DNA from: a virus
Taxonomy: Duplodnaviria > Heunggongvirae > Uroviricota > Caudoviricetes
Virus record (IMG/VR): IMGVR_UViG_2671180458_000004
Strand: one strand, 5' to 3'
DNA: 21,008 bases
Shown here: positions 2,362 to 21,008 of the stretch, piece after piece
Numbering within the stretch: position 1 is the stretch's first letter
How the letters are laid out: each line of letters starts with the position of its first letter
The notes under the pieces: model-generated
What the model saw: only the letters and a program-made list of their open reading frames with translations
Told to the model about the DNA's origin: nothing
The model's database searches: none
Made by a program: the position numbers and the translations under genes

Positions 2362-3494
2362 TATTGCATTTCCTCTTTCATTTTCAGGAACTCGGCTTCG
2401 GTTTTACCCAGCAGATGGGCAGCGGCGATATCTTCAGCCGACAGCGCAGCGGTGGCAGTCTTTTTATCCGGCACGGTCACGGTGTCGGTCTGAAGGCCGG
2501 TCAGGGCCGCAACCGGCTGTCGGGCGTCAAGCTGTGCAGAAAGTGCCGCAACACCAATCTGCCCACCCAGTTGTTCCAGATAGCCGCGTTCGCTTTTGAA
2601 GATGCGCCCTTCGGATTCAGCCTTGTCCAGCACCTGCTCCAGTGTGGTGCTGCCGTGCTGTGCCGACAGCGCAACGTATTCGGTACGCAGGGCGTTATAC
2701 GTTTCAACGGGCACGTATTTCGTCAGATCAATACTGCCTCCAGCCGGTGTGCCTTTTGCGGTTTCCAGCTCTGCCGACAGACTGGCGACCTGTGTTTTCA
2801 GGTTGTCGTGTGCATCCGCACGGGTTTTGATCCCGGTGAGTGCAGACAGCGCCGCCGTGCCCAGCTCCGGCGTAAATTCGTCACCGTCAGCCACGGTCAG
2901 ACCGAGCGCCGTCAGCAACTGGCGTAATTGCTCATTCATGGGGTGTTGCTCCTGAGAAGGGGAAACTACATAGAGATCGTCAGCACTGAGTGCTGCGACA
3001 GGGTTCATACCCGTAATACCTGGATCATTCGTCAGGGAAGCCATGCGCAACAGGTAGGGTTCCCCGGTGTCAGCGAAATAATGCATATACGCAGACAGAT
3101 AGGCATATTCACGGTCATCAATATGTTTTTGGGCCTGCGGCGTCCATTCAGGTTTAATGAAAATCCCCTGACCCTCACGCCATTCGATGTTTTCCGGCTT
3201 AACCCAACCTGCGGCAATGGCCTTAAATCCGTTTTTCTGCGCATTCATGGAGTGATGGTCATAATCAATCAGTAACGGCTGATTCAGGGCGGAAAGCCCG
3301 GCTTTCATCCGGTTGCAGGCGGATTCGTTAATCAGCCAGCCTTCAGCCGGTTTTTCCGGGCGACCGTCACGGGCCTTTACCCTGCCTGCTGGCAGTAACT
3401 GACACCATCCGTCGCCGGATGCAGTCAGCGAAGCTGAAAGCACGGCTAAACCAGAGGGGCGATTTGCGTCTTTTGGGTGATTTTCTGTCTTCAT
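2361..3494 (-). CDS. I: Mu I-like head protease/scaffold protein (gp32-like)
   Basis: 377 aa; stop overlaps the T start (TAATG); no clear SD at the listed start, so the true start may differ. Confidence 0.85.
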   Translation of the reverse strand: MKTENHPKDANRPSGLAVLSASLTASGDGWCQLLPAGRVKARDGRPEKPAEGWLINESACNRMKAGLSALNQPLLIDYDHHSMNAQKNGFKAIAAGWVKPENIEWREGQGIFIKPEWTPQAQKHIDDREYAYLSAYMHYFADTGEPYLLRMASLTNDPGITGMNPVAALSADDLYVVSPSQEQHPMNEQLRQLLTALGLTVADGDEFTPELGTAALSALTGIKTRADAHDNLKTQVASLSAELETAKGTPAGGSIDLTKYVPVETYNALRTEYVALSAQHGSTTLEQVLDKAESEGRIFKSERGYLEQLGGQIGVAALSAQLDARQPVAALTGLQTDTVTVPDKKTATAALSAEDIAAAHLLGKTEAEFLKMKEEMQ

Positions 3495-5596: not shown

Positions 5597-7178
5597 CCAG
5601 CATCCCCTTCATTTCCGCAGCAAACATGGCATCACTGAGCAGCGTCATCAGGCGGGAATCATCCATTTCACGGTAAAGGGCAGGCAGGTCTGCCAGTGCC
5701 TCCGCCAGCCCCCGCGTTCTGATGGCATCAATGACCGGCTCCAGTACCGGGTCGATGGCCTCCTGTAACCGACGGGCAGGCACCGCATCCCCCATGTCGT
5801 CCAGTTCATCTCGGGGGCTGCTCTTCGCTTCCGGCAGTCTGGCAGCCAGCGCTGTCTGCTCTGTCTTCTCCTGTTTTTCCGGTGGCATCTCTTTGTCTGT
5901 CTGAGCAGGTTCATTGCCACTCTGACGGACACGGAAGATGGCTTCGCCGGGCGTGGGCTGCGGAATACCCGTCTGCTCACGTATCCAGGGATCAGAAATA
6001 TCCATCCCCGTACTGAGCTGCATCACCGCACTGGTGATTTTGGTGATATCCCCCGGCTCTTTTGTCTGGAAACAGATACGCGGCAGGCGACGGATATCTA
6101 TGGCGTGGGCGGTGTTCAGGGCATACAGCGGATACACCAGATCGCGGTTCAGCGTGGCGGCCAGCTGACGTAAATCAGAATCCCTGATTTCCCGGCGCAC
6201 CTCGTTATGCACTTCACCCAGCGAGCGCGCGCCCTTGTCTCCGGCTTCCGTGGTCAGCGTGCCGCCGAGGATAGCTTTGGAGATGGAACGCTCCCCCCAC
6301 GAAATCATGGTTTCAAACGGATCGGCCTGACCGTTCGCTGCCGCCTGAAACTCCAGCGACATCCCGGCCGGGATGATCCCGCCTGTACGTCGCCCGATAT
6401 CCATCACCGCCCGCATCAGGGCGCTTTTCTGCTCCGGTGTTGCCCCGGACGGGTATTTACCGACCTTCATCGGCAGGCCGTACACCTCCAGAAATTCAGC
6501 CAGATCGCGCACGGAATAGTTTTTGAAAATGAACGGCCAGATAAGCGTTCTGACAAGCCCCGTCGCACCACCGTATCCAGTGCGTGAACGCGACTGATGC
6601 ACTATCCAGCCAAAGGGCTGAAACGCCACCCCGGCATGGCTGCCGTCACGCAGCCGCAGTTCGCTCAAATCATCCGGGTTAAGGCAGAAATGCCCGCTGT
6701 CACGCCAGCGGATGGCGCGGATGATGTGCATTTTACCGAGCATCCCGTGCTCAATCTCCATACAGGAATAGCCCTTCAGGATGGCATCGGTGGCATCAAA
6801 CAGCATGGCATCAAACCAGTCGGCGGAATGAAGATATTCGTCGAGCATTTCCGCGTCCTTTTTCTCATTCGCGCTGGCGTTCGGTGGCGGCTCAATACTC
6901 CAGGGCACGCCCTGAATGGCAAGACGTCGCTTGCCCAGCTCTGCAAAAAGGTGGGTATCCTTTTCTTCAATGTCAGCGGCCAGATCGGACTGGGCAATCA
7001 GATCGCCACGTTCAGCCCCGCGAAGGCACTGCGCCGCCCGGTTCGGGGTGATACCCGAGGCCGGATGTTCAATATAACGGCTGGCAATCTGCGGAATATC
7101 CAGCACGGCACTCTGCATCTCCGGATCAAAGGAGAAAGGTTTTCCGTCAAGATCAATTATGCGTCCCACTACCAGCAC
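5580..7178 (-). CDS. H: Portal protein (Mu gp29/H-like, DUF935)
   Basis: 532-aa ORF whose listed start is a GTG overlapping the terminase stop; an in-frame ATG at 7118 is an alternative, so the start is uncertain. Confidence 0.88.
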   Translation of the reverse strand: MLVVGRIIDLDGKPFSFDPEMQSAVLDIPQIASRYIEHPASGITPNRAAQCLRGAERGDLIAQSDLAADIEEKDTHLFAELGKRRLAIQGVPWSIEPPPNASANEKKDAEMLDEYLHSADWFDAMLFDATDAILKGYSCMEIEHGMLGKMHIIRAIRWRDSGHFCLNPDDLSELRLRDGSHAGVAFQPFGWIVHQSRSRTGYGGATGLVRTLIWPFIFKNYSVRDLAEFLEVYGLPMKVGKYPSGATPEQKSALMRAVMDIGRRTGGIIPAGMSLEFQAAANGQADPFETMISWGERSISKAILGGTLTTEAGDKGARSLGEVHNEVRREIRDSDLRQLAATLNRDLVYPLYALNTAHAIDIRRLPRICFQTKEPGDITKITSAVMQLSTGMDISDPWIREQTGIPQPTPGEAIFRVRQSGNEPAQTDKEMPPEKQEKTEQTALAARLPEAKSSPRDELDDMGDAVPARRLQEAIDPVLEPVIDAIRTRGLAEALADLPALYREMDDSRLMTLLSDAMFAAEMKGMLDGTGD

Positions 7179-8833
7179 CCCCGATCAAATTCATGATATG
7201 CCTCATCGTCATCACGATAACCGCCCTCCATTGCCCGCGACCGTTCCGGCAGCGCCTGACAGGCTGATTCATCCAGGATGAAGCCCTCCATGTATGACGC
7301 CCGGTTTGCCATACAGAGCGCCACGGCAAAATCGCCATGGCGGCGGGCGTTCACAGCCGTTGCGTTCTGGTCCTTCGTGCGCCCCTTGTCGATTTGCGGG
7401 ATACCGTTCACCACCTTCACATGGCGCAAATCATCAAGCGTGGTCTGATGGCGGGCGATGAGGATATTCTGATCCTCAAACTCGGCCTTCAGTTTTGGCA
7501 TCCACTCGCCGTACCACTTCGGCGATAACATCACGCAGTCGATGATGTCCGGGCCAAAGGCCAGCAGCGCGGCTTCGGCCAGATAGCCGCCGTTACCGGT
7601 GGCGTCGAACGCCGCACCGACCAGCGCCGGAACGCGGGTCAGGATGTACATCATCACCTGCTCCTGCTGGGCATACGGCAGGTTGCGCAGCTCCACGCGA
7701 AACACCTCGCGTTTTGCCAGGGATTCAGTGATTTCCAGCAGCACAAAGCAGGAGAGGTCACCGGTGCGGGCAAAGTCTTCCCCGAAGCTGAAGCGGGAAC
7801 GGGAATTTAACGCCTCTAAAAGCGGTTTTAAATGTTCTTCACACCAGGTTAAAACCTCCGATTCACGCAGCCATGCGGCACGGCTGATGAAGTCGTCCGG
7901 GGCTTCAAACGTCAGAATCGGGATGTCGCGGATCATCGCCATTTCAATAAGTGCGTGAGGAATATAGGCACCGCCGGACTTTTTCGGGATACAGCCGTAT
8001 TCCTCGTCGGCATCCTCACGGGTCGGGGCGTTTTTGTAGAGATCATCACGCCACTTCTGCTCGCTTTCCGGTGACCATTCGCGGCCGGTGACATAACAGA
8101 TACGACGGTACAGCCCGTCCGCAATGGCATCATCCAGGGTAATGCGGTGGACGCTGTAATCCTTGCGCCCCTCGCGGGCTTCCTGAATGTACTGATTAAA
8201 CAGATTATCGACGCCGTTATGCGTGGAGATAATACGCACGCGCGCGCCCCACATGGTAAGCGCCATTGCCGCCTTGAGAAGTTCATCCAGTGACTCGTGG
8301 AACGCGGCTTCATCAATCACCACATCCCCCTGAAGGCCGCGCAGGTTTGACGGACGGGAAGACAGTGCCTGAATTTTGAATCCACTGTTCGGAAAGCGGA
8401 TCATGTAGGTCAGAATTTCTTCTTTTTTATCCCGATCCCAGAAGGTCTGCTCATACACATCAGCATCTGCCAGCTGGTTAAAGGCACGGGAGAACAGGGC
8501 GCAGGCAGAAATATATTCCAGCGCCATCTCCTGCTTTGACCCCACATAAAACACATTGCGGCCACCGCGCCGCTTCGGTTTTGCAGCGGTAATGACGTTA
8601 CGCCCGGCTTCCGCCCAGGTAAGCCCGGTACGGCGGGATTTTTCCGCGATGCAGACCTCGCTTTCATCCTCAAACCAGCGGGCCTGATAATCCAGAAACA
8701 CCGGCATATCACCGGGCAAATCAAGGCTGTCCGGCACATCCACGCCCAGCAGGGCTTTTTCACCGGCCAGATCAATTTTGCGGGTGGAGACGGTATTCGT
8801 CAGTAAGGGTGAGAGTTCTTCGGCGTTATTCAT
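7169..8833 (-). CDS. Terminase large subunit (Mu gp28-like)
   Basis: 554 aa; ATPase N-terminal half and nuclease-like C-terminal half recognised by recall of Mu-type terminases; directly upstream of portal. Confidence 0.9.
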   Translation of the reverse strand: MNNAEELSPLLTNTVSTRKIDLAGEKALLGVDVPDSLDLPGDMPVFLDYQARWFEDESEVCIAEKSRRTGLTWAEAGRNVITAAKPKRRGGRNVFYVGSKQEMALEYISACALFSRAFNQLADADVYEQTFWDRDKKEEILTYMIRFPNSGFKIQALSSRPSNLRGLQGDVVIDEAAFHESLDELLKAAMALTMWGARVRIISTHNGVDNLFNQYIQEAREGRKDYSVHRITLDDAIADGLYRRICYVTGREWSPESEQKWRDDLYKNAPTREDADEEYGCIPKKSGGAYIPHALIEMAMIRDIPILTFEAPDDFISRAAWLRESEVLTWCEEHLKPLLEALNSRSRFSFGEDFARTGDLSCFVLLEITESLAKREVFRVELRNLPYAQQEQVMMYILTRVPALVGAAFDATGNGGYLAEAALLAFGPDIIDCVMLSPKWYGEWMPKLKAEFEDQNILIARHQTTLDDLRHVKVVNGIPQIDKGRTKDQNATAVNARRHGDFAVALCMANRASYMEGFILDESACQALPERSRAMEGGYRDDDEAYHEFDRGCW

Positions 8834-11467: not shown

Positions 11468-11893
11468 TCAGAAAAGTGGCGGTTGCGTTCTTGCCAGATG
11501 CAGACGGCGCTGTTCGCGTATGACGGTATAAATCTGGGTTTCTGACATCCGGTAATGGCGGCGAAGGGATTCAATTTTCTCGCCCCGGTCCCAGCGCGAA
11601 AATATCTCATTGTTTCGCAGCTCGGCAAAGAGAGATTCCCCGACCGGCAGGTAATAACCCCGTCCGCCCATATAGGCTGCCTGAGCCGCAGCCACCTTGC
11701 GTGCCAGTTTACCGGCCAGTACCGGCTCAATCCCCTGACGCTGAAGTTCTGCGCCAGTGACTTCAACCAGTTCTGACAGGGTCCGCGGCCAGTTCTTTTT
11801 GAGAACATCATCAGGGATGTCATCAAGGCGGTCGATAAGGGCGTGCAGTTGCTCACTGTCACCACCAAACATGCTCATCTGAGTTTCTGCCAT
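11468..11893 (-). CDS. mor: Mor/C-family transcriptional activator (middle/late gene activator)
   Basis: 141 aa, the size of Mu Mor (129 aa) and C (140 aa); GGAGG about 6 nt upstream; located between gemA and lys. Confidence 0.85.
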   Translation of the reverse strand: MAETQMSMFGGDSEQLHALIDRLDDIPDDVLKKNWPRTLSELVEVTGAELQRQGIEPVLAGKLARKVAAAQAAYMGGRGYYLPVGESLFAELRNNEIFSRWDRGEKIESLRRHYRMSETQIYTVIREQRRLHLARTQPPLF

Positions 11894-11962: not shown

Positions 11963-12472
11963 TTAACGGGGAAGTGATTTTTCATACTGCCTGCAAACGG
12001 CGTCATACCCCATCAGCGTGCGTTCGGGCATTCCCATCGCGGCCAGCATTTTGCGGCGGTGCCATCGCTTGAGACGCTCCAGCACATCTGAGGCCAGGGC
12101 GGGGTGTTGCTCCAGCCACTGCCAGTTTGCCACACCTTCGCCGCCGTTTTGCGCGGCCGTCTGCGATTTCACCCAGCGGTTAAGGGCGGTTTCCGCACCA
12201 TCAGAGATAAAGCCCTGCCGGTGCATCACCTTCCAGATGGCGCGAATTTTAGCGGTCACCGTACCCGGTTTTAAGGCCCGGTTAACCGGGTTCTGACGCA
12301 CTTTAAAACCGCGTTTTTTGAAAACATCCAGCACGCGGGACAACTCATCCGGTGACATATCCCGGCAGCTGGTTTTGCCGGTGGCTGCCAGCAGCACGAA
12401 TGTATAAGTCTCATCATCCAGGGCAAGCTCGCGCTTTGCCACATGAATGGCGGATATCAGTTTTCCTCTCAT
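11963..12472 (-). CDS. gemA: GemA-family protein (Mu gp16-like, DUF1018)
   Basis: 169 aa; N-terminal MRGKLISAIHVAKRELALDDETY pattern recalled as typical of Mu GemA homologs; sits just upstream of mor as in Mu. Confidence 0.8.
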   Translation of the reverse strand: MRGKLISAIHVAKRELALDDETYTFVLLAATGKTSCRDMSPDELSRVLDVFKKRGFKVRQNPVNRALKPGTVTAKIRAIWKVMHRQGFISDGAETALNRWVKSQTAAQNGGEGVANWQWLEQHPALASDVLERLKRWHRRKMLAAMGMPERTLMGYDAVCRQYEKSLPR

Positions 12473-12765
12473 ACCGTATTTACCTTTTTACGGACATGGA
12501 AAGCCTTTTCTGCCTCATCCCACCGGGCATGGTGTGTTGGCGGAATAATCATTATGTGCCAGCCATCTCTGGTTGTTATCCGGCAGAAAAATTCACCGCT
12601 ATATAACACAATGGCCTGCTGAATGAGCGCATCAGCCGCCCGTTCAACCGGATATCTTTTATCAAAAAAGCAGATGATTTTTCGACATAACCACCGGGTA
12701 ATAACAAATGCACCGAAAAAGGATGTGATATATAAGCACCAGAACAACAGAGAACTATTGTCCAT
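12469..12765 (-). CDS. Hypothetical protein with N-terminal transmembrane helix (98 aa)
   Basis: AAGGAGAAAG RBS; hydrophobic N-terminus LLFWCLYITSFFGAFVITRWL; ATGA coupling into gemA. Confidence 0.6.
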   Translation of the reverse strand: MDNSSLLFWCLYITSFFGAFVITRWLCRKIICFFDKRYPVERAADALIQQAIVLYSGEFFCRITTRDGWHIMIIPPTHHARWDEAEKAFHVRKKVNTV

Positions 12766-12952
12766 TATCTTTCTCCTTATTCACTCTTCTTCGGCATTCG
12801 GCACAGTCATCAGGGCTTTCAAATGTATCCGGCTCGCGATTATGAGCCAGATATAACCACCGTCCACATATACTGATATTTTCGCCTGTTTTAAAAAAAT
12901 GATGCTTCCTGGCCATTAGTGGCCGCGCCCATCCAGCGGGTAGACTATTCAT
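12755..12952 (-). CDS. Hypothetical small protein (65 aa) with Cys/His residues
   Basis: GGAGGATAAAGCAA RBS; overlaps both neighbouring genes by a few nt; C-x(6)-H-x(12)-C-x2-C pattern could bind a metal (speculative). Confidence 0.55.
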   Translation of the reverse strand: MNSLPAGWARPLMARKHHFFKTGENISICGRWLYLAHNREPDTFESPDDCAECRRRVNKEKDNGQ

Positions 12953-13280
12953 TTGCTTTATCCTCCATGCTGGACAGAATCATATGTATTAATGTCGGGC
13001 GTGGAGATATACGCATTTCATTAAGCGTCTGAAGGGCAGCAACAGCTGCCTGTTTATCGGTGCCTTTGGCTATCTCTGCAAGAGAATGCACAATCCATAA
13101 CGGACTTAACGCCACGGCTGAATCCAGAATCATGTCATCCATAATAATTTCTGGCATATCCCGCTTGTCACATTCTTTATCTATAAAAGAAACGATTTTT
13201 TCTGCATCTTCCGGTTTCATGCCTCCGGCGATGAGAATTTTACGATATTCATAAGGCGATCTTAATTCAATACTCATCAT
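12945..13280 (-). CDS. Hypothetical acidic protein (111 aa)
   Basis: GGTGA-type RBS immediately upstream of ATGATG; lies in the low-GC stretch. Confidence 0.6.
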   Translation of the reverse strand: MMSIELRSPYEYRKILIAGGMKPEDAEKIVSFIDKECDKRDMPEIIMDDMILDSAVALSPLWIVHSLAEIAKGTDKQAAVAALQTLNEMRISPRPTLIHMILSSMEDKANE

Positions 13281-13292
13281 TCACCTGCCTGT

Positions 13293-13661
13293 TTAATCAG
13301 TTTCCAGTGCTTTGCTACGGGCAACAGCCTCACACTCAAAAAATACCGACTCCGGCACACGCTCCTTTAATTCACGAACAAGAAAATCATTAACGAGCTC
13401 ATGACGTCTTATATTTCTTTCCTTTTCCTCCTGGCGCAATACAGCAAGGCGGTATTCAACAGTCCGGCGTTGTTTCTGAAAGACAGCCAGTGCTTTTCTG
13501 GCAGAGTTACGCCATGTATCATCGCCACAGGGTTCGTATTCAAGCTGAAATTTAATCTCTTCAATGGTTTCTTTTATTTTTGCCAGCAAGCTAAGACAGT
13601 CGCTGATTGTCTTCAGTTTTTCATTATCAATATAACTTCTCACGCATTCACCTCCCGTCAT
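13293..13661 (-). CDS. Hypothetical protein, probably coiled-coil (about 122 aa)
   Basis: ORF 13293..13685 begins at a GTG; the ATG at 13661 forms an ATGA overlap with the upstream stop and is preferred. Heptad-like charged pattern in the C-terminal half. Confidence 0.55.
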   Translation of the reverse strand: MTGGECVRSYIDNEKLKTISDCLSLLAKIKETIEEIKFQLEYEPCGDDTWRNSARKALAVFQKQRRTVEYRLAVLRQEEKERNIRRHELVNDFLVRELKERVPESVFFECEAVARSKALETD

Positions 13662-13969
13662 TCCGGTAAAGCTGAAATATGACACCAGTGCGTCACCTGT
13701 CCGTCCTCATCTTCAAGGCAGGCTCCGGTTTCTTCATCAACAAAAAAGCCTTCATACCCCATATGGCCGATGCGCAGTTCCTGCCTGTGACCATACTGAA
13801 CAATCAGCACGACAGCCTCCATATCAGGCGGGAAAGCATCATTCAGTGAATGCCAGGGATAACCGCGCAAATCCCCGAAATAAACACCGGTCAGCGTTCC
13901 GCCACAGACCGGCATTCCGGCGGCACACACAAGAGGTTCATCTGATTCAACAAATAAGGTGGTTATCAT
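13658..13969 (-). CDS. Hypothetical strongly acidic protein (103 aa)
   Basis: ATGA-coupled start; many more acidic than basic residues by manual count; C-terminal EDEDGQVTHWCHISALPE. Confidence 0.6.
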   Translation of the reverse strand: MITTLFVESDEPLVCAAGMPVCGGTLTGVYFGDLRGYPWHSLNDAFPPDMEAVVLIVQYGHRQELRIGHMGYEGFFVDEETGACLEDEDGQVTHWCHISALPE

Positions 13970-14193
13970 GATGCCATTTGCTCCTGTATTTTCTGGCGTA
14001 AGTTTTCAATTTCTGCCGCCATATAAAAACCAATTTTGCTCCAGACATCAGCATCATCACCATGTTCTTCCAGCTCCATTACCGCCATTAAACACGCATC
14101 CTGCCAGTCACTGCTGTTATCAGTTACCGCCACTGAAAATGATGTACTGTCATGTCTGTTAATTATGACGACTGGCTTTTCAATTTTTCTCAT
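13966..14193 (-). CDS. Hypothetical small acidic protein (75 aa)
   Basis: GGGAGG about 6 nt upstream; ATGA coupling to the next gene; rich in Asp/Glu. Confidence 0.6.
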   Translation of the reverse strand: MRKIEKPVVIINRHDSTSFSVAVTDNSSDWQDACLMAVMELEEHGDDADVWSKIGFYMAAEIENLRQKIQEQMAS

Positions 14194-14375
14194 TTATGCC
14201 TCCCGGAAATACGAATGTATATACCGATGAGAAAATCCATAATAAACAGGAAGAGCGACATCCTGATAAAGAACCAAATGTCAGGCATCATGGACAGGTT
14301 TCCTGTAATCGCAAATATAAAACCAATCCCCAACACCGGAACGATAATTGCGAAAAATATAAGTCGTTTAATCAT
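14190..14375 (-). CDS. Small predicted membrane protein (61 aa, two hydrophobic helices)
   Basis: Sequence is almost entirely two hydrophobic stretches separated by a short polar loop; ATGA overlap with the upstream stop. Confidence 0.6.
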   Translation of the reverse strand: MIKRLIFFAIIVPVLGIGFIFAITGNLSMMPDIWFFIRMSLFLFIMDFLIGIYIRISGRHK

Positions 14376-14923
14376 GGCATTAACTCCCGTAATACAACAT
14401 CCTCGGCAGTCCGGCGATGGTGATAAATAAAATTCACCGTACTCTCGGATAATTCAAATTTCTCGCCTATTTCCCGGAAGGTAAGACGTCGTGGTGATTC
14501 AGCATCCCGTAATTCACGAATAAGATGAACATCATCGTCAGGTATACGGGTGAAGGGCAGCAATTCTCCGTATTTTTTCATGCTTACGCCAATATATCGC
14601 GCCCGATTGTGGACAGAATCCCGGTCTCGCCCCAGATATTCTCCTATTTGCTTACCGGTCATCGTTCTGGCATTTTTTCGGATAAATTTATCTTCATCAT
14701 GTTTAAATCTTGGACGTTTGCATTTGAGCAACTCCGGGTAAGTACCGCGTAATAAAACAATCCGGTTATGTACACCCCAGAAACTTCTTTTTACCCTGAC
14801 AGCAATATCCTTAACCGGGGTGGATGGATAAAGCGCAATCAGCAGTGCATCTTCTTCAGGTGTCCACGCACGGACATGAGCGGGTGCACGGCCTTTTCGC
14901 CCCATGGGTTGTAAAATCATCAT
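14372..14923 (-). CDS. Putative DNA-binding protein with several HTH-like segments (183 aa)
   Basis: AGGGGGTGA RBS; Myb/SANT-like WTPEEDALLIALY near the N-terminus, a central TGKQIGEYLGRDRDSVHNRARYIGV and a C-terminal LTFREIGEKFELSESTVNFIY segment. Confidence 0.65.
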   Translation of the reverse strand: MMILQPMGRKGRAPAHVRAWTPEEDALLIALYPSTPVKDIAVRVKRSFWGVHNRIVLLRGTYPELLKCKRPRFKHDEDKFIRKNARTMTGKQIGEYLGRDRDSVHNRARYIGVSMKKYGELLPFTRIPDDDVHLIRELRDAESPRRLTFREIGEKFELSESTVNFIYHHRRTAEDVVLRELMP

Positions 14924-14926
14924 ACA

Positions 14927-15442
14927 TCACCCCCTGACTCGCTTTTCAGCAGCATAAAACTCATCAGACAGAATTTCGGTCATTTTCCGTTTTGCGGAAT
15001 CATCTTCGCACTGAAGGTAAATAACATCGTCAACGCAGAACCACTTCACGGGACCATGCAATATTGCTGAAAAGTCAATGCCCAGCCAGAACAACAGGGC
15101 ATCGGTTCTGGCATACGTGACGGGCGAATATTCACGCCACAGACTGTTAAGTTCGTCAGAGGCAACGCGCAGGGCTTTGGGAATACGTGATGTGCGCGGT
15201 GTGCAGCTCCAGCCATTCGACGCAGTCGGTTTTCGCCATAAGTCGCGATGAAAAGGATATTTGTCATCCATAAAGCGCAGCCCTTTAAAACAAAAGCCAC
15301 TGATACCGGATACAAATACCGACCGGCACGCAACATTCAGCACGGCCTCAAGGCGTTTTGCCTCATCCTTAACTTTCTGGCAGTCCTGCTGATATTTTTT
15401 CCACGCGGCCAGCGCGGAAGGGTTTGATGTTTTAAAGAACAT
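14927..15442 (-). CDS. Hypothetical protein (171 aa)
   Basis: Translationally coupled to the upstream gene (TAATG); no recognisable motif. Confidence 0.65.
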   Translation of the reverse strand: MFFKTSNPSALAAWKKYQQDCQKVKDEAKRLEAVLNVACRSVFVSGISGFCFKGLRFMDDKYPFHRDLWRKPTASNGWSCTPRTSRIPKALRVASDELNSLWREYSPVTYARTDALLFWLGIDFSAILHGPVKWFCVDDVIYLQCEDDSAKRKMTEILSDEFYAAEKRVRG

Positions 15443-15975
15443 TACGCCACCTCCGCAGATATCCCGGCAGGCGCGGCCGTCCGGTCAACAATCAGGTAAC
15501 GCAGAACACGCGCGGTGATATTCCAGCCGCTTAAACCGCAGATGATGACACCCAGGCGTATGTCGATATACGCCATCACAAACTGGGGCACGCCTTCTTT
15601 CATGGCCTGCTCATCAACTTCAGCCACCACATAAACGGTTTCGCAGGTCAGTACGCCCTGAGCAAATTCCCACGCCATCGACGGAATATCATGCCCCTCA
15701 ATCCACGGCAGGGACTTTCTGAAGCTGCACCACTGAACATCATCAGCCGCACATTCCTGGCTGCATTTGCGACGAACCGGCTGCACCGGGCGGGGACGCG
15801 GAATATCATAAAAACCGTTACATTCCGTCAGCACCCCGGCATCAACCGCATCACGCAGAAAATAAACCATCGAGGATGGCGGCATATTCATTTTTTCAGC
15901 CAGAACACCGCAGGTCAGACGTCCGTAAATACGCAGCCAGTTTTTAACCCCTTCAAGCACTTTTGCATCAATCAT
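15442..15975 (-). CDS. Hypothetical protein (177 aa), possible N-terminal winged-helix-like segment
   Basis: GGAGG about 8 nt upstream; stop and next start overlap as TAATG; the helix-turn-helix impression is by eye only. Confidence 0.65.
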   Translation of the reverse strand: MIDAKVLEGVKNWLRIYGRLTCGVLAEKMNMPPSSMVYFLRDAVDAGVLTECNGFYDIPRPRPVQPVRRKCSQECAADDVQWCSFRKSLPWIEGHDIPSMAWEFAQGVLTCETVYVVAEVDEQAMKEGVPQFVMAYIDIRLGVIICGLSGWNITARVLRYLIVDRTAAPAGISAEVA

Positions 15976-15978
15976 GAA

Positions 15979-16521
15979 TTATTCCTCCGTCAGCGCCACA
16001 TATTCAGAATGTTTAATTTCCTGGCATTCTTCAGGAATACACCCGTTTATTTCCCTGCCATAAGCGCCTACTTTAAACACCACGCACAGGGCATCACGGG
16101 AGAGTGACGGGGTCCACCAGGAGTCCGTGTTAAACATGGAGGGGATTCTCATTACCCCCAGCTTTTCACAGAGCCAGACAAGGAAATCAGGACGCTTTCT
16201 TAACTCGCGTTCAGCGGCTTCAACCATTGCGGCAATCGCCGGACCTTCAGGGCATGACTCATCAGGTCTGGCAATAAAGCACGGTCCGCCCCCGATAAAA
16301 GCCACATCATCGCGCTTACGCCAGCCCGCAGGCAGAGAACCAGAAAAATAAAACTCACTGATTACGTCCATGGCGAACGGCTTTAAGCGCAATCCGGCAG
16401 CGCCTGTATTTTTCAGTAATGCCCGAAGAATACTGTTGCGTAGCGGTAAAACAGTCTGTTGATATTTGGTGAAATATTTATTTGTCTGTACACGGTCTAA
16501 TTTGAAATAAAAATATGCCAT
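15979..16521 (-). CDS. Hypothetical protein (180 aa), accessory block
   Basis: AAGGAACAGGA RBS; first gene after the 97-bp gap downstream of gam; no family recognised. Confidence 0.65.
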   Translation of the reverse strand: MAYFYFKLDRVQTNKYFTKYQQTVLPLRNSILRALLKNTGAAGLRLKPFAMDVISEFYFSGSLPAGWRKRDDVAFIGGGPCFIARPDESCPEGPAIAAMVEAAERELRKRPDFLVWLCEKLGVMRIPSMFNTDSWWTPSLSRDALCVVFKVGAYGREINGCIPEECQEIKHSEYVALTEE

Positions 16522-16618
16522 ATTTCCTGTTCCTTATTTTCAGTTTACAGGCGCAGGCAGTCCCCTGACGCGAGCGCCATAATTAAAACGAAGTGATATT
16601 TAAAGATTTAATGCGGTG

Positions 16619-17149
16619 TTATTTATTCAGTCCGGCGTCCTGTTCAAAAGGCTCGACATGAAAACTTTCAGCACCTTTATTCACCTTAATACCAGCAACC
16701 CCTTTCACCGCATCCGGCTCCGCCAGGACAGCTTGCTTATTCACTTCCTCTTTCGTGCGGATGAAGCGCTCAAGCCCCATACGACGCAGCATTTCAATCA
16801 CACCTTCCACATCACGACTGACGCTGCATGATGGATTTCCCAGCCGCCATGACACCGTTCCGGTGGTCAGATTGGCAGTTTTGGTTTCGCCGCCGTTCGT
16901 CAGCTCATTGCGGTTGGTTTTACACCAGTCATGAATCCCCTTAAAAAGCACTTTGATTTCTTTTTTAAGGTTTTCAATCTGCGGCGTATAACGGGCGGTG
17001 ATTTCTGCCACTTCATCATTCATTGCCGTTTCCAGGCGCAGCGCCTCTCGCTGAATATCGCCCAGGGTGCGGATATCGCGGCTGACCTCTTCACGGGTCT
17101 GCGGTGCCGCCTCTGCTGCGGCCTTTAATTTTGTAACGCGTTTTGCCAT
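16619..17149 (-). CDS. gam: Host-nuclease inhibitor Gam (Mu Gam family, Ku-like DNA end-binding protein)
   Basis: 176 aa, the size of Mu Gam; sequence recalled as Gam family; AAGGAAAAA RBS upstream of the ATG. Confidence 0.85.
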   Translation of the reverse strand: MAKRVTKLKAAAEAAPQTREEVSRDIRTLGDIQREALRLETAMNDEVAEITARYTPQIENLKKEIKVLFKGIHDWCKTNRNELTNGGETKTANLTTGTVSWRLGNPSCSVSRDVEGVIEMLRRMGLERFIRTKEEVNKQAVLAEPDAVKGVAGIKVNKGAESFHVEPFEQDAGLNK

Positions 17150-17160
17150 TTTGTTTTTCC

Positions 17161-17454
17161 TTATTGCAATGTATCTGGTCCGTTCTGAACAGAACGGCGT
17201 TCAACGGAGCTGCTTACCCCCATGGCCTGCATGGAACCCTGTAGTTCATCTGTCAGAAACTGAATGATTGTGGGGCTGTGATATTTAAGAATTTGTGCAT
17301 AAACATCACAGGGTCCTGCCGGTCTGTTCTCTGTATCACGTTCGATTTTTACCGTGGCAGTAACCCCCTCCGTGATTTCCTTACTATCATTACCGGCTGG
17401 CTTTACTTCATGCATTACGTGGTCAAATTCAAAAATAACGCGTACTTTGCTCAT
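17161..17454 (-). CDS. Hypothetical early protein (about 97 aa), paralog of the adjacent gene
   Basis: Start moved to the second ATG (17454): it aligns with the paralog's N-terminus, has AGGGG about 8 nt upstream and avoids a 23-nt overlap. Confidence 0.6.
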   Translation of the reverse strand: MSKVRVIFEFDHVMHEVKPAGNDSKEITEGVTATVKIERDTENRPAGPCDVYAQILKYHSPTIIQFLTDELQGSMQAMGVSSSVERRSVQNGPDTLQ

Positions 17455-17458
17455 GGAA

Positions 17459-17731
17459 TTACCCCTGTTGATTAAATTCATTACCGTTAATAACCCCGGA
17501 ACTCATGTCCATATCTTTCATGAGCGCACTGGCTTTCATTGCCACAAGTTCAGCAAAGTCTCTGCTTTCCGCGAGCATAACCACCCCAAAAATCATGGCG
17601 GGTCCATCACCTTTCTGCTTTATCCCGGTTGAACGTATGTCCAGACTTACCCCCATGCGCACTGTTCCATCAGCGTTTTTATGGATAACGTGCTCCTTGT
17701 ATTCGAAAATAATGCGTACGACTTTACTCAT
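17459..17731 (-). CDS. Hypothetical early protein (90 aa), paralog of the adjacent gene
   Basis: N-terminus MSKVVRIIFEYKEHVIHK resembles MSKVRVIFEFDHVMHEVK of the 17161..17454 product; C-terminal MKDMDMSSGV versus MQAMGVSSSV. Confidence 0.6.
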   Translation of the reverse strand: MSKVVRIIFEYKEHVIHKNADGTVRMGVSLDIRSTGIKQKGDGPAMIFGVVMLAESRDFAELVAMKASALMKDMDMSSGVINGNEFNQQG

Positions 17732-18277: not shown

Positions 18278-18505
18278 TTAGCTGACTTGTTTCGCACCAA
18301 CAGAACGGCATATTCCGCTGTAAACTTCTGTCGCACCTTCGCGATCAAGTCCGGCAGATATCACCATTCGTGTGCGGTCATTAAATTCAAAAAGTAAATC
18401 GCCACATTCTTTATTTTCGGCCAGTGAAATCACCTTCACGTTATCGAAATTAACCAGGTAAAAGCGTCCGTAAATATCAGGAATATTAAATACCGCCATA
18501 ATCAC
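18278..18505 (-). CDS. Small early protein at the kil position of Mu (75 aa); function not established
   Basis: GTG at 18505 overlaps the B stop (GTGA); an in-frame ATG at 18499 with AGGTG upstream is an alternative start. Kil-like only by position and size. Confidence 0.5.
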   Translation of the reverse strand: MIMAVFNIPDIYGRFYLVNFDNVKVISLAENKECGDLLFEFNDRTRMVISAGLDREGATEVYSGICRSVGAKQVS

Positions 18506-19434
18506 ACCTGTGAGAGTAATTCAGGGTTGGTATAAACCTCTTTAAAGGCCGCATTAATATGTTTTTCTGTCAGCGCCGCGCCTTCACCGCTGGCGGTGAG
18601 CCACGCCTGGTTAAGCGTATGTGTCAGAACGCGTAACGCTCCCGGCTTTTCAGCGATAGCCTGCATGACGGCCAGCTCGGCCTCACCACTGATCCCCCAC
18701 GCCCTGGCAATGGCCAGCACATCCGCCTTTTTGGCCTTGCGAAGTTGTTTTGTACGGGCAAGACGGCTGAACAGGCGCGATAAATCATCAAAGGCGCGGC
18801 GTCCACCTTTAAACAATCCGCGCGGGTTACCAATAAGCACCATCCCGATCCCCGTGGCGTCCTGAATTGCCCGGAGTTGCTCCAGACCGTCAATACCAAG
18901 ATGATCCGCCTCATCCACAATCACCAGTCCACGCGTTCCCATCAGGCGACGGCGGATGGCGCGGGATAATGCCCCTTTGTTCGCGCGGGTGTAATCAATC
19001 CCCAGCGCATCGGCCAGCTCCAGCAGACACTCCGTGACGCTGGAGTGCGCGGGTGACAGGGTGATCATCCAGGTGTTTGGTTGCTCCTGGCAGTAATTAC
19101 GGGCAGTGGCCGTTTTACCCACACCCGGTACGCCCACAATAACGTTAATACAGCCCATCAGACGAACCGCCTGAAACAGTGTGCGCAGCTCCTGGACTGT
19201 CTGCGTTTCCACAAACTGCGGCGGTTCCGGCAGTGCGCTTTGTTTATTCCAGTTCTCATACCAGGAACGCAGGGAAGCAGCCACAGCAGCGTTATCGCCT
19301 TTATATTTTCCCTTACGGAAAGCCGATAATGTGCCGTCGGAAATTCCCGCCTCTCTGGCGATGGCATACTGCGTCAGTACGCCGCCATCAATAAGTTCAT
19401 CAATGGTCTTGATTACATCGTTAATATCAGTCAT
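18502..19434 (-). CDS. B: Mu B-type transposition target-DNA activator, AAA+ ATPase
   Basis: 310 aa; Walker A GVPGVGKT and Walker B-like LVIVDEADHL visible; N-terminal HTH-like segment; directly downstream of A; GAGG about 9 nt upstream of ATG. Confidence 0.92.
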   Translation of the reverse strand: MTDINDVIKTIDELIDGGVLTQYAIAREAGISDGTLSAFRKGKYKGDNAAVAASLRSWYENWNKQSALPEPPQFVETQTVQELRTLFQAVRLMGCINVIVGVPGVGKTATARNYCQEQPNTWMITLSPAHSSVTECLLELADALGIDYTRANKGALSRAIRRRLMGTRGLVIVDEADHLGIDGLEQLRAIQDATGIGMVLIGNPRGLFKGGRRAFDDLSRLFSRLARTKQLRKAKKADVLAIARAWGISGEAELAVMQAIAEKPGALRVLTHTLNQAWLTASGEGAALTEKHINAAFKEVYTNPELLSQV

Positions 19435-19469
19435 ATTATTAACCTCTCATTTGATACCTTGTTTAATCA

Positions 19470-19505
19470 AATAACCTGAGTCGCCGCTCGGGTTATTTTT
19501 TTATT
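19470..19505 (+). terminator. Terminator-like hairpin in the A-B gap, oriented for the plus strand (antisense to the genes)
   Basis: About 11-bp stem (19470-19480 with 19487-19497, one G-U) around loop TCGCCG, followed on the plus strand by TTTTTTTATTT; on the minus strand no U-tract follows. Confidence 0.4.
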
Positions 19506-21008
19506 TCAGGCCAGCGGGTCATTTTCTTTTAATTTCGCTTCCAGCAACTGCAATCCCCGCTGGAAATTACGCTCGTATTCTTCATCAGGCTCATCATCAA
19601 CGGCAGGTTGCTGAACGGCCACCGTATTACCTACCGGGCGATAGATGTTTTCCAGCCAGGGCTCCTGCGGCTTGTGCTCCAGCACGTTGACAACCTCATC
19701 CTCGGCATCACGGATTTTTTCCTCTGCGCGTTTACGCATGCCTTTAAGGCGTTGCTGCTGTTTGTAGTATTCCGCGCTAACCGGGAAGGCTTCGCGTTTA
19801 TTACCGTCCCATACCGCCTCGCAAATCACGCTGCCATCCAGGCGACGTACGGTAATTCGTTCGGCATCATGAATGTCATAGCTGATAAGCACCTTGCGGC
19901 CATGCTCATCACGCAGCTCGGGCGCGTAGTAAATATTATTCAGCCAGCGTATTTCACAGCGTCTTACAGGGCGTTCCACCATCGGCCGGAACATGTCCCG
20001 CAATTCCACATCGGACAGCCATTCAATTTCCGTGTCCTCTTCCGCCAGGCATTTTTTTCTGAACTCCGCCGGGCTGTAATGTTTACCGTTCGGCTTCATC
20101 GGTAATTCATCGTGCGGTCGGTTGTTGTACCACTCAACACCATCACGAATGGCATCAATCAGTTCAGACCAGGACGGTAAATCACGCATCGCTGACTGTT
20201 GCCGGGCGTTCAGCCGTTTGCCCTGTTGCAGGGCGGTAAATGCCGAGCGTAAATCGCGGTTGGTTTTGCGTAACGTCTCGCGATCTGCACCTTTCCCGAA
20301 ATAGGTGCGGTATTTACGGGCTATGCGCATCGGTAATGTGCGGTTAAGCCGTTCGATAATGCCTCGTCCCTGCGGATTACCGGCAATCCCGGTCGGGTGA
20401 TTAATCCCCAGTCGCGGCAGTATCCCCACAACCTCCTTATCCAGGATGTCGGCGGTTTCCCCGGAGCCGTTATCCGAGTAATACAGAAACGGTTTGCCGT
20501 GATGGCGAATGCCGTGCTGTATGGCACCGGCTACGGCGAAAACATTTTCAGCCAGGTCAAGGCTCCAGCCCACCACAAAGCGCGTGCCACCGTCGATAAC
20601 AAAGGTCACTTCCGGTGCAAATGGCCGACCGTGAACCGGGTGTGCGCATTTCAGCTTCATGCCGTGACCGTCACCAATCCAGACATAATTCACCGGCATT
20701 TTTGACCAGTCGCGGCGCGTGAATCCCTCAAGCTGGCGGTATTCACTGCCGGTCACCCGGCCTTTTTGTTTCACCACTTCCGGCAGTTTCTTCATTGCGC
20801 GGCGAATGGTGTCATAAGACGGCATGATATCGAGCATATAAGGCTCATCAGCGTGCCGGTGCTGCCATTCAGCGACAAAATCCTCGTAAGCCTCGGTCAT
20901 TGGTCGGCCGTTTGACTGGCGATACTGCGCCAGAAATTCGGGCAGCCAGTTAATATCTTCGGCTTTTATTTCCTGGCGCTTACCCGGTGCCAGTAAAAGC
21001 AGGCGTTC
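19506..21008 (-). CDS. A: Mu-type DDE transposase A, C-terminal portion (N-terminus lies beyond the window edge)
   Basis: 464-aa ORF 19506..20900; the same frame stays open with no stop from 20901 to 21008, so the listed Met is internal. Position immediately upstream of B. Family assignment from recalled similarity to MuA. Confidence 0.9.
   Translation of the reverse strand, partial: ERLLLLAPGKRQEIKAEDINWLPEFLAQYRQSNGRPMTEAYEDFVAEWQHRHADEPYMLDIMPSYDTIRRAMKKLPEVVKQKGRVTGSEYRQLEGFTRRDWSKMPVNYVWIGDGHGMKLKCAHPVHGRPFAPEVTFVIDGGTRFVVGWSLDLAENVFAVAGAIQHGIRHHGKPFLYYSDNGSGETADILDKEVVGILPRLGINHPTGIAGNPQGRGIIERLNRTLPMRIARKYRTYFGKGADRETLRKTNRDLRSAFTALQQGKRLNARQQSAMRDLPSWSELIDAIRDGVEWYNNRPHDELPMKPNGKHYSPAEFRKKCLAEEDTEIEWLSDVELRDMFRPMVERPVRRCEIRWLNNIYYAPELRDEHGRKVLISYDIHDAERITVRRLDGSVICEAVWDGNKREAFPVSAEYYKQQQRLKGMRKRAEEKIRDAEDEVVNVLEHKPQEPWLENIYRPVGNTVAVQQPAVDDEPDEEYERNFQRGLQLLEAKLKENDPLA

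Follow-up and report, generated by a model that had tools for sequence, protein, structure and literature searches.

The three consecutive genes that follow gam in this stretch of viral DNA (21,008 nucleotides, referred to at its full length as the window) are two catalogued early genes of phage Mu, gp11 and gp12, together with a catalogued DUF cassette, and they do not constitute a new three-component system. We put at about 0.6 the probability that these genes, ORF1 to ORF3, are ordinary early genes of a transposable, Mu-like E. coli prophage, situated in its semi-essential region and carried as independent cassettes, with products that are likely to be non-enzymatic binders serving host takeover or counter-defense. 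The genes themselves were already known; the modest new details are an apparent paralogy between two of them, a variable slot, and a conserved hairpin. As first stated the finding carries little weight, the members of the trio being conserved hypothetical genes already catalogued for Mu and related phages.

Early genes of a Mu-like prophage

Every gene of the window lies on the minus strand. Read in the order of transcription, a transposase gene (19506-20900), a gene for a MuB-like ATPase (18502-19434) and several small ORFs precede gam (16619-17149), which is followed by a 97-nt gap and then by ORF1 (15979-16521), ORF2 (15442-15975) and ORF3 (14927-15442); 3' of ORF3 lie a gene for a helix-turn-helix (HTH) protein, a low-GC run of small ORFs, gemA (11963-12472) and the late genes. 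The upstream anchor of the locus, gam, encodes a Mu Gam/Ku-like DNA-end binding protein (Pfam Phage_Mu_Gam, E 2.6e-39; PHROG 491) that is 55% identical to Mu Gam. Since gam occupies 16619-17149 and ORF1 extends to 16521, the gap between them (16522-16618) is exactly 97 nt. The preliminary description of three consecutive, similar-sized proteins of 180, 177 and 171 aa, set apart from gam by this interval and joined to one another by tight, coupling-type junctions, is correct in all of these respects. Three nucleotides (TTC) separate the ORF1 stop from the ORF2 ATG, and the 3' end of ORF1 (ACG GAG GAA TAA) holds the GGAGGA ribosome-binding site of ORF2 within its last codons, while ORF2 and ORF3 share the stop-start overlap TAATG. 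ORF3 is in turn coupled, across a 3-nt interval, to the HTH gene (14372-14923, minus strand), which forms part of the context rather than of the trio; its 183-aa product matches PHROG 323 (“transcriptional regulator, D5-like”, E 1.9e-58) and is 31% identical in its C-terminal part to Mu gp9/E8. Between positions 14300 and 17300 no promoter-like sites were found, and terminator-like sites occurred at chance level. The GC content of the trio had been described as close to that of the phage core, which holds only roughly: it is 50.3% overall (ORF1 48.1%, ORF2 53.7%, ORF3 49.2%) compared with 53.7% across the window and 56.8% in the late region.

The DNA of the window is 95-98% identical to a Mu-like prophage present in 232 of 5426 complete E. 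coli genomes (~4%), and the same prophage DNA is also found inside two Stx-phage records. Proteins exactly matching those of ORF1 to ORF3 are encoded on about 700 to over 1000 public contigs, where they are always named hypothetical, uncharacterized, or “Mu prophage protein”. Among related IMG/VR contigs, the distinct alleles of ORF1 (n = 13), ORF2 (n = 25) and ORF3 (n = 20) are all intact, with mean dN/dS values of 0.29, 0.16 and 0.20, respectively, and of 0.09 for gam. ORF1 to ORF3 are under purifying selection and are real genes.

ORF2 is the ortholog of Mu gp11 (Mup11, UniProt GP11_BPMU; formerly E10-E12; PF25754; PHROG 1949), with 68% identity between residues 1-177 and 1-176 of the two proteins (E 8e-81) and a match to PHROG 1949 at E 3e-105. 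The trio had been thought to hold no recognizable motif, but ORF2 matches the Pfam family PF25754, Gp11_C (“Phage Mu Gp11 C-terminal domain”), with a score of 136.3 bits where the cut-off is 27; the match spans residues 90-167 with all 78 model positions covered, and the same domain is found in 20 of 20 aligned ORF2 relatives. Mu gp11 further resembles ORF2 in its length (176 vs 177 aa), in its position after gam and a conserved spacer, and in an equal stop/start overlap with the next gene. The corresponding part of the Mu map reads gam, a 98-nt gap, gp11, and gp12, the last two joined by a stop-start overlap, whereas here ORF1 is inserted between the spacer and gp11. In most related loci gp11 follows gam and the spacer, and in some the upstream gene is not recognized as gam. 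Upstream of Gp11_C, ORF2 comprises a putative winged helix (about residues 1-60) and a variable linker (about residues 62-85). The N-terminus of gp11 yields only sub-threshold winged-helix/HTH matches (HTH_20 at E 0.017-0.09, PCI, WH4_Lhr and HTH_CodY, up to E 0.1), and this domain is not basic. The gp11 protein is probably a winged-helix adaptor or regulator.

ORF3 is the ortholog of Mu gp12 (Mup12, UniProt GP12_BPMU; formerly E13; PF26885; PHROG 2314), with which it shares 53% identity across 168 aa (E 2.5e-63); its match to PHROG 2314 has an E of 1.4e-82. The Pfam scan returned no match for ORF3 and none for Mu gp12 itself; PF26885 is a precomputed label on homologs that are 45-96% identical to ORF3. 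As in the window, gp12 lies directly 3' of gp11 in Mu and likewise in D108. Unlike in Mu, ORF3 is followed by the 183-aa HTH gene at the place where Mu has gp13.

ORF1 has no counterpart in Mu. It is 39% identical end to end to ORF11 of the Shigella phage SfMu (YP_009152197, “DUF5420 family protein”; PF17457; PHROG 2260), which likewise lies in the slot that separates the post-gam spacer from gp11. The two sequences are strongly diverged but have in common a conserved C-terminus, ...IKHSEYVALTEE, and the loci differ in that the gp12 gene downstream in SfMu is frameshifted and unannotated. ORF1 matches PHROG 2260 over its full length (E 5.7e-74), and a gene of the same type is present in three Yersinia Mu-like phages. 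The Pfam scan gave no match for ORF1, nor for SfMu ORF11, which carries the NCBI name DUF5420; a profile built from ORF1 relatives matches a distant member of the family (P0187, E 2.4e-9) that bears PF17457 DUF5420. An exhaustive comparison of the ORF1 profile with 1.8 billion representative proteins recovered only 27 clusters at 50% identity, nearly all of 180-210 aa, most of which keep the extreme C-terminus EIKKSEFvALTEE. On its contig, a distant ORF1-family gene has DUF1382, DUF4406 and DNA-methylase genes as neighbors.

The preliminary description had named, as the finding that would speak against a novel trio, homology to Mu early genes with synteny conserved in all Mu-like phages, and this is largely what was found. 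ORF2 and ORF3 are gp11 and gp12 in the Mu position, and ORF1, which is absent from Mu, is the homolog of an SfMu gene in the same slot. The synteny holds among enterobacterial relatives of Mu and does not extend to Mu-like phages of Pseudomonas, whose DNA-level match is limited to gam.

A conserved spacer and a variable slot after gam

The gap between gam and ORF1 contains a conserved spacer element (16548-16610, minus strand) that is composed of an AT-rich tract, TTTTAATTAT, followed by a hairpin at 16550-16578. The hairpin is formed by GGCGC (16578-16574) and GCGCC (16554-16550), which enclose the loop GCGTCAGGGGACTGC (16571-16557). The spacer core is 81-83% identical at the nucleotide level to those of Mu and SfMu, versus 58-71% for the flanking genes, and all of the Mu-like loci examined carry the element, even where the upstream gene is not recognized as gam. 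Across 21 distinct versions of the hairpin and its 10 pairs, 96% of cells are paired. Several G-C to G-U changes occur, and covariation consists of one compensatory C-G to U-A change, seen in five sequences that seem closely related. This pattern is suggestive, without being proof, of an RNA hairpin. Rfam gave no match in the window or in the spacer, the hairpin has neither a T-tract nor promoter-like hexamers, and the predicted folding of the whole gap, taken as a 111-nt segment, did not surpass that of shuffled sequence (z -0.47). When GTDB genomes were scanned for the exact pattern of the Mu-type hairpin, there was no match. Two further candidates were set aside. A second near-copy of the loop motif (11727-11741) lacks a flanking stem and falls within a coding ORF (11468-11893), and was judged to be due to chance; a conserved peptide starting at an ATG inside the hairpin was rejected because the frame of this short ORF shifts between lineages.

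The hairpin also marks the left border of a variable slot. Within the lineage of the window (minimum identities of 94% for gam, 92% for gp11 and 89% for gp12, and of 97% for MuB in most contigs, with one at 82%), the ORF1 slot is found in three states: it holds the window allele (91-100% identical), holds a second allele (23-24% identical), or is empty. Alignment of the three states places the left junction immediately after the hairpin (...GCGCCTG) and the right junction at the last codons of the cassette, whose GGAGGA is the ribosome-binding site of gp11. The empty slot retains an ORF1-like ribosome-binding site and start and a 14-codon ORF (MKYVYIVINNVVGK) whose stop lies 3 nt ahead of the gp11 ATG. 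Retention of these features gives the empty slot the appearance of an internal deletion that preserves translational coupling, and suggests that translation of gp11 may need a ribosome arriving from upstream. Farther downstream in the same lineage, the HTH gene occurs as two allele classes, about 88-99% and about 70% identical. The earlier designation of the trio as accessory genes agrees with their location in the semi-essential early region and with the behavior of ORF1 as a swappable cassette.

Independent occurrence and apparent kinship of the three families

To examine how the three families occur relative to one another, loci were fetched from IMG/VR with a profile of each family, typed by HMM and deduplicated, which left 70 gp11 neighborhoods. 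The sample represents the best 80 matches from each of the three scans and consists mostly of E. coli and Salmonella prophages. The complete set of an ORF1-family gene, gp11 and gp12 was found in 32 of the 70 (one of them with two tandem ORF1-family genes), gp11 and gp12 in 19, gp11 alone in 12, and an ORF1-family gene with gp11 and without gp12 in the remaining 7. In the four loci with gp11 alone that were inspected, an ORF of 60-82 aa directly follows gp11. Although biased toward best matches, this sample is sufficient to establish that each gene can occur without the others. Members of the Mu gp12 family are also found without gp11 in Klebsiella Lastavirus phages, in 83-kb Vibrio phages, and in other phages of Klebsiella, Acinetobacter and Pseudomonas, and further lone gp12-like genes are carried by a Klebsiella Mu-like phage and by about a dozen other IMG/VR contigs. 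Searches for homologs on plasmids returned just a few records; in the two of high identity, ORF1 and ORF3 stand about 0.5 kb apart, as they do in this prophage.

These distributions bear directly on the proposal, made in the preliminary description, that the trio is a multi-component module. Were the three proteins subunits of a single anti-defense or accessory module that functions only as a set, their similar sizes and tight translational coupling would be accounted for, as would their place in an accessory early region beside gam, a RecBCD antagonist, and the cassette-like replacement of alleles in the ORF1 slot, which is typical of arms-race genes. The families nevertheless occur in every combination, with all four states of presence and absence around gp11 represented, which indicates independent cassettes rather than subunits of one machine; gp12-like genes stand alone in unrelated phages; ORF1 is missing from phage Mu itself; and plasmids yielded no homologs beyond a few records, of which the two of high identity carry ORF1 and ORF3 spaced as in the prophage. 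We regard an obligate module as highly improbable.

A further argument against partnership comes from the relationship between ORF1 and ORF3. Comparison by BLAST reveals no similarity between the two proteins, which accounts for the earlier description of the trio as free of mutual paralogy; three further lines of evidence speak against that description. Alignment of the ORF1 and gp12 family profiles by hhalign gives an end-to-end match at 71% probability (E 3.7e-5), which rises to 82% (E 1.1e-5, 153 columns) with larger profiles built from the fetched loci; control alignments against gp11 and gam gave 0.2% or less. AlphaFold2 models of ORF1 (pLDDT 93) and ORF3 (pLDDT 85) are predicted to have a near-identical order of elements: a strand, a long helix or helices, a hairpin, a variable middle, two helices, a hairpin, a strand, and a C-terminal helix. 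Seven of the 13 best BFVD neighbors of ORF1 are also among the 11 best of ORF3, and these common neighbors are uncharacterized phage proteins of about 170-215 aa. While probabilities of 71-82% are not decisive on sequence alone, profiles and models together make ORF1 and ORF3 appear to be remote paralogs with one fold, for which we propose a gp12/DUF5420 superfamily. The authors of the SfMu genome called ORF11 unique and guessed that it and Mu gp12 “may be divergent homologues” (PMC4406740); this kinship is here backed by the comparison of profiles and predicted folds. Paralogous proteins are more likely to be alternatives to one another than partners, and an apparent single family would explain why one or the other is absent from some phages.

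Possible functions of the early proteins

Scans of ORF1 to ORF3 against NCBIfam and against the PADLOC defense models gave no match, and searches of the PDB with single sequences and family profiles gave chance matches only (MIF, FABP4 and PnuC). In these scans and searches we saw no likeness in sequence or fold between the three proteins and a characterized inhibitor or defense protein, found no solved structural relative of the gp12/DUF5420 proteins, and detected no conserved catalytic motif in the family alignments. The anti-defense role suggested in the preliminary description is thereby neither favored nor disfavored. Acidic DNA mimics were considered as a candidate and ruled out by the isoelectric points (ORF1 7.6, ORF2 5.2, ORF3 9.0). 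Names given to the three families in databases are limited to “hypothetical”, “uncharacterized” or “DUF”, none of them functional, and searches of the literature found no functional study of Mu gp11, gp12, Mup11, Mup12 or DUF5420; the semi-essential region of Mu is itself described as largely uncharacterized (PMC3820752; PMC8705779).

With low confidence, we propose that ORF1 to ORF3 encode independent, dispensable early proteins that act by binding rather than by catalysis, the mode of action being argued from the absence of catalytic features. The three genes would be read together with gam from the early promoter. The gp11 protein would serve as a small adaptor or regulator, its expression tied to the translation of whatever lies upstream. 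The gp12/DUF5420 proteins would work stoichiometrically as host-takeover or counter-defense factors, each of them bound to some macromolecule of the host or the phage at an early stage of lytic growth, and ORF1 and gp12 may provide alternative or complementary specificities towards a host target. A more far-reaching version, which we regard as tentative and somewhat doubtful, would unite these elements: a gp12/DUF5420 superfamily with a fold unlike any that has been solved, distributed in the early regions of temperate phages both Mu-like and unrelated to Mu, would supply host-specific counter-defense or takeover effectors, with the copy in the slot being swapped in the manner of an arms race, and the hairpin would be an element of RNA processing or stability that sets expression of the downstream block.

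Two other roles can be weighed against a binding function in takeover or counter-defense. The proteins could instead assist Mu DNA transactions alongside Gam, in transposition-replication or in the handling of ends, to which classical phenotypes of the Mu semi-essential region, such as amplified replication, would correspond. Such a role would fit the location of gp11 downstream of gam and the conserved spacer in the majority of the Mu-like loci inspected, the possible winged helix of gp11, the basic character of gp12 (pI 9.0), and the neighborhoods of gp12-like genes elsewhere, which lie in temperate-phage early regions near repressor and ParB-like genes and, in one case, near a DNA ligase gene. 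On the other hand, many natural relatives can dispense with gp12 and ORF1, neither sequence nor fold resembles a known DNA-metabolism protein, and the literature search found no link of these genes to a replication phenotype, so that we consider a part in DNA transactions unlikely.

Alternatively, low expression from the prophage could be of advantage to the lysogen, with superinfection exclusion and lysogenic conversion as examples of such an effect. Low-level transcription of the semi-essential region has been reported in Mu lysogens, and some of its genes have been suggested to benefit the host (PMC3820752). The prophage is very common in E. coli, and in several of 14 sampled non-Mu contigs an S24/HTH CI-like repressor gene precedes the gp12-like gene by a few genes on the same strand. 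Against this stand the location of the genes deep in an early lytic operon, where positions 14300-17300 contain no promoter-like site, the lack of a match to PADLOC defense models, and the fact that visual inspection of ORF1 to ORF3 brought up neither a signal peptide nor a membrane segment; a benefit to the lysogen seems quite improbable. The favored reading remains that of ordinary early genes, carried independently, whose products are likely to bind targets in host takeover or counter-defense.

For the biology of Mu and its relatives, the apparent union of the SfMu-type DUF5420 proteins and Mu gp12 in one family halves the number of unknowns in this stretch. In a prophage carried by ~4% of complete E. 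coli genomes, alleles are replaced at a defined hot spot, the slot that separates the post-gam hairpin from gp11, and this slot is a reasonable place in which to seek host-interaction or counter-defense functions. Within the well-developed genetics of Mu, gp11, the most constant member of the trio, and the hairpin that precedes it offer the best first target for a knockout.

The post-gam spacer and the empty ORF1 slot

The gap after gam contains a conserved element on the minus strand (16548-16610) composed of an AT-rich tract and a hairpin, in which the stem GGCGC / GCGCC encloses the loop GCGTCAGGGGAYTGC. Counterparts are found at about 6355-6400 in phage Mu and about 6290-6335 in Shigella phage SfMu (NC_027382), and the element is also present at loci where the upstream gene is not recognised as gam. 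Conservation of the tract and hairpin exceeds that of the flanking genes; one base pair of the hairpin has undergone a compensatory change, and several others have changed to G-U. The element matches no Rfam family and lacks features of a promoter or a terminator.

Downstream of this spacer, two prophages of the same lineage as the window lack ORF1 (L011, about 3020-3080; L014, about 3410-3470), and both retain its ribosome-binding site and start. The slot instead encodes a 14-codon ORF (MKYVYIVINNVVGK) that ends 3 nt before the gp11 ATG, and it looks like an internal deletion in which translational coupling was preserved.

Ancestry and cargo around the early genes

The region at 18502-20900 is a mosaic in ancestry: its transposase shares 50% identity with that of Klebsiella phage ST405-OXA48phi1.1 and only 24% with MuA. 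Identity between the MuB-like ATPase and MuB is 49%. The alignment of the transposase ORF as listed (464 aa) begins about 180 residues into the Klebsiella phage protein; upstream of the first ATG of this ORF, close to the edge of the window, there is an in-frame stop. Just 5' of gam are two small ORFs of 106 aa (17161-17481; PHROG 2230) and 90 aa (17459-17731; PHROG 4107), which are weak paralogues of one another (26% identical across 86 aa; E 1e-4).

On the other side, ORF3 is coupled to an HTH gene of 183 aa (14372-14923) that falls, within one lineage, into two allele classes (about 88-99% and about 70% identical). The C-terminal part of its product resembles gp9/E8, which in Mu is encoded upstream of gam; this suggests either that the gene is one more exchangeable cassette of the early region or that a rearrangement has taken place. 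From the HTH gene to gemA (12473-14371), GC content drops to 43.8% compared to 53.7% for the window, and this patch of eight small ORFs, including one for a hydrophobic protein of 61 aa (14190-14375), is probably further accessory cargo.

ORF1-family and gp12-like genes in other phages

The SfMu gene named gp12 is a gp11 homologue, and it is followed by an unannotated, frameshifted homologue of Mu gp12 (7442-7957) with about 52% identity to ORF3. SfMu can therefore not strictly be counted as lacking gp12, in contrast to what the published comparison states. In one Mu-like contig (L068, 2323-3467), two tandem ORF1-family genes precede gp11 and gp12, so that, with gp12 included, the proposed superfamily is represented three times in succession.

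Beyond Mu-like phages, 14 non-Mu temperate-phage contigs from IMG/VR were sampled. In several (contigs in the range L072-L084, e.g. L074, 2523-4519; L078, 2030-4510), a CI-like repressor gene of the HTH/peptidase-S24 type is followed, a few genes downstream and in the same orientation, by the gp12-like gene, a hint that this gene and the immunity region of these phages might be expressed together.
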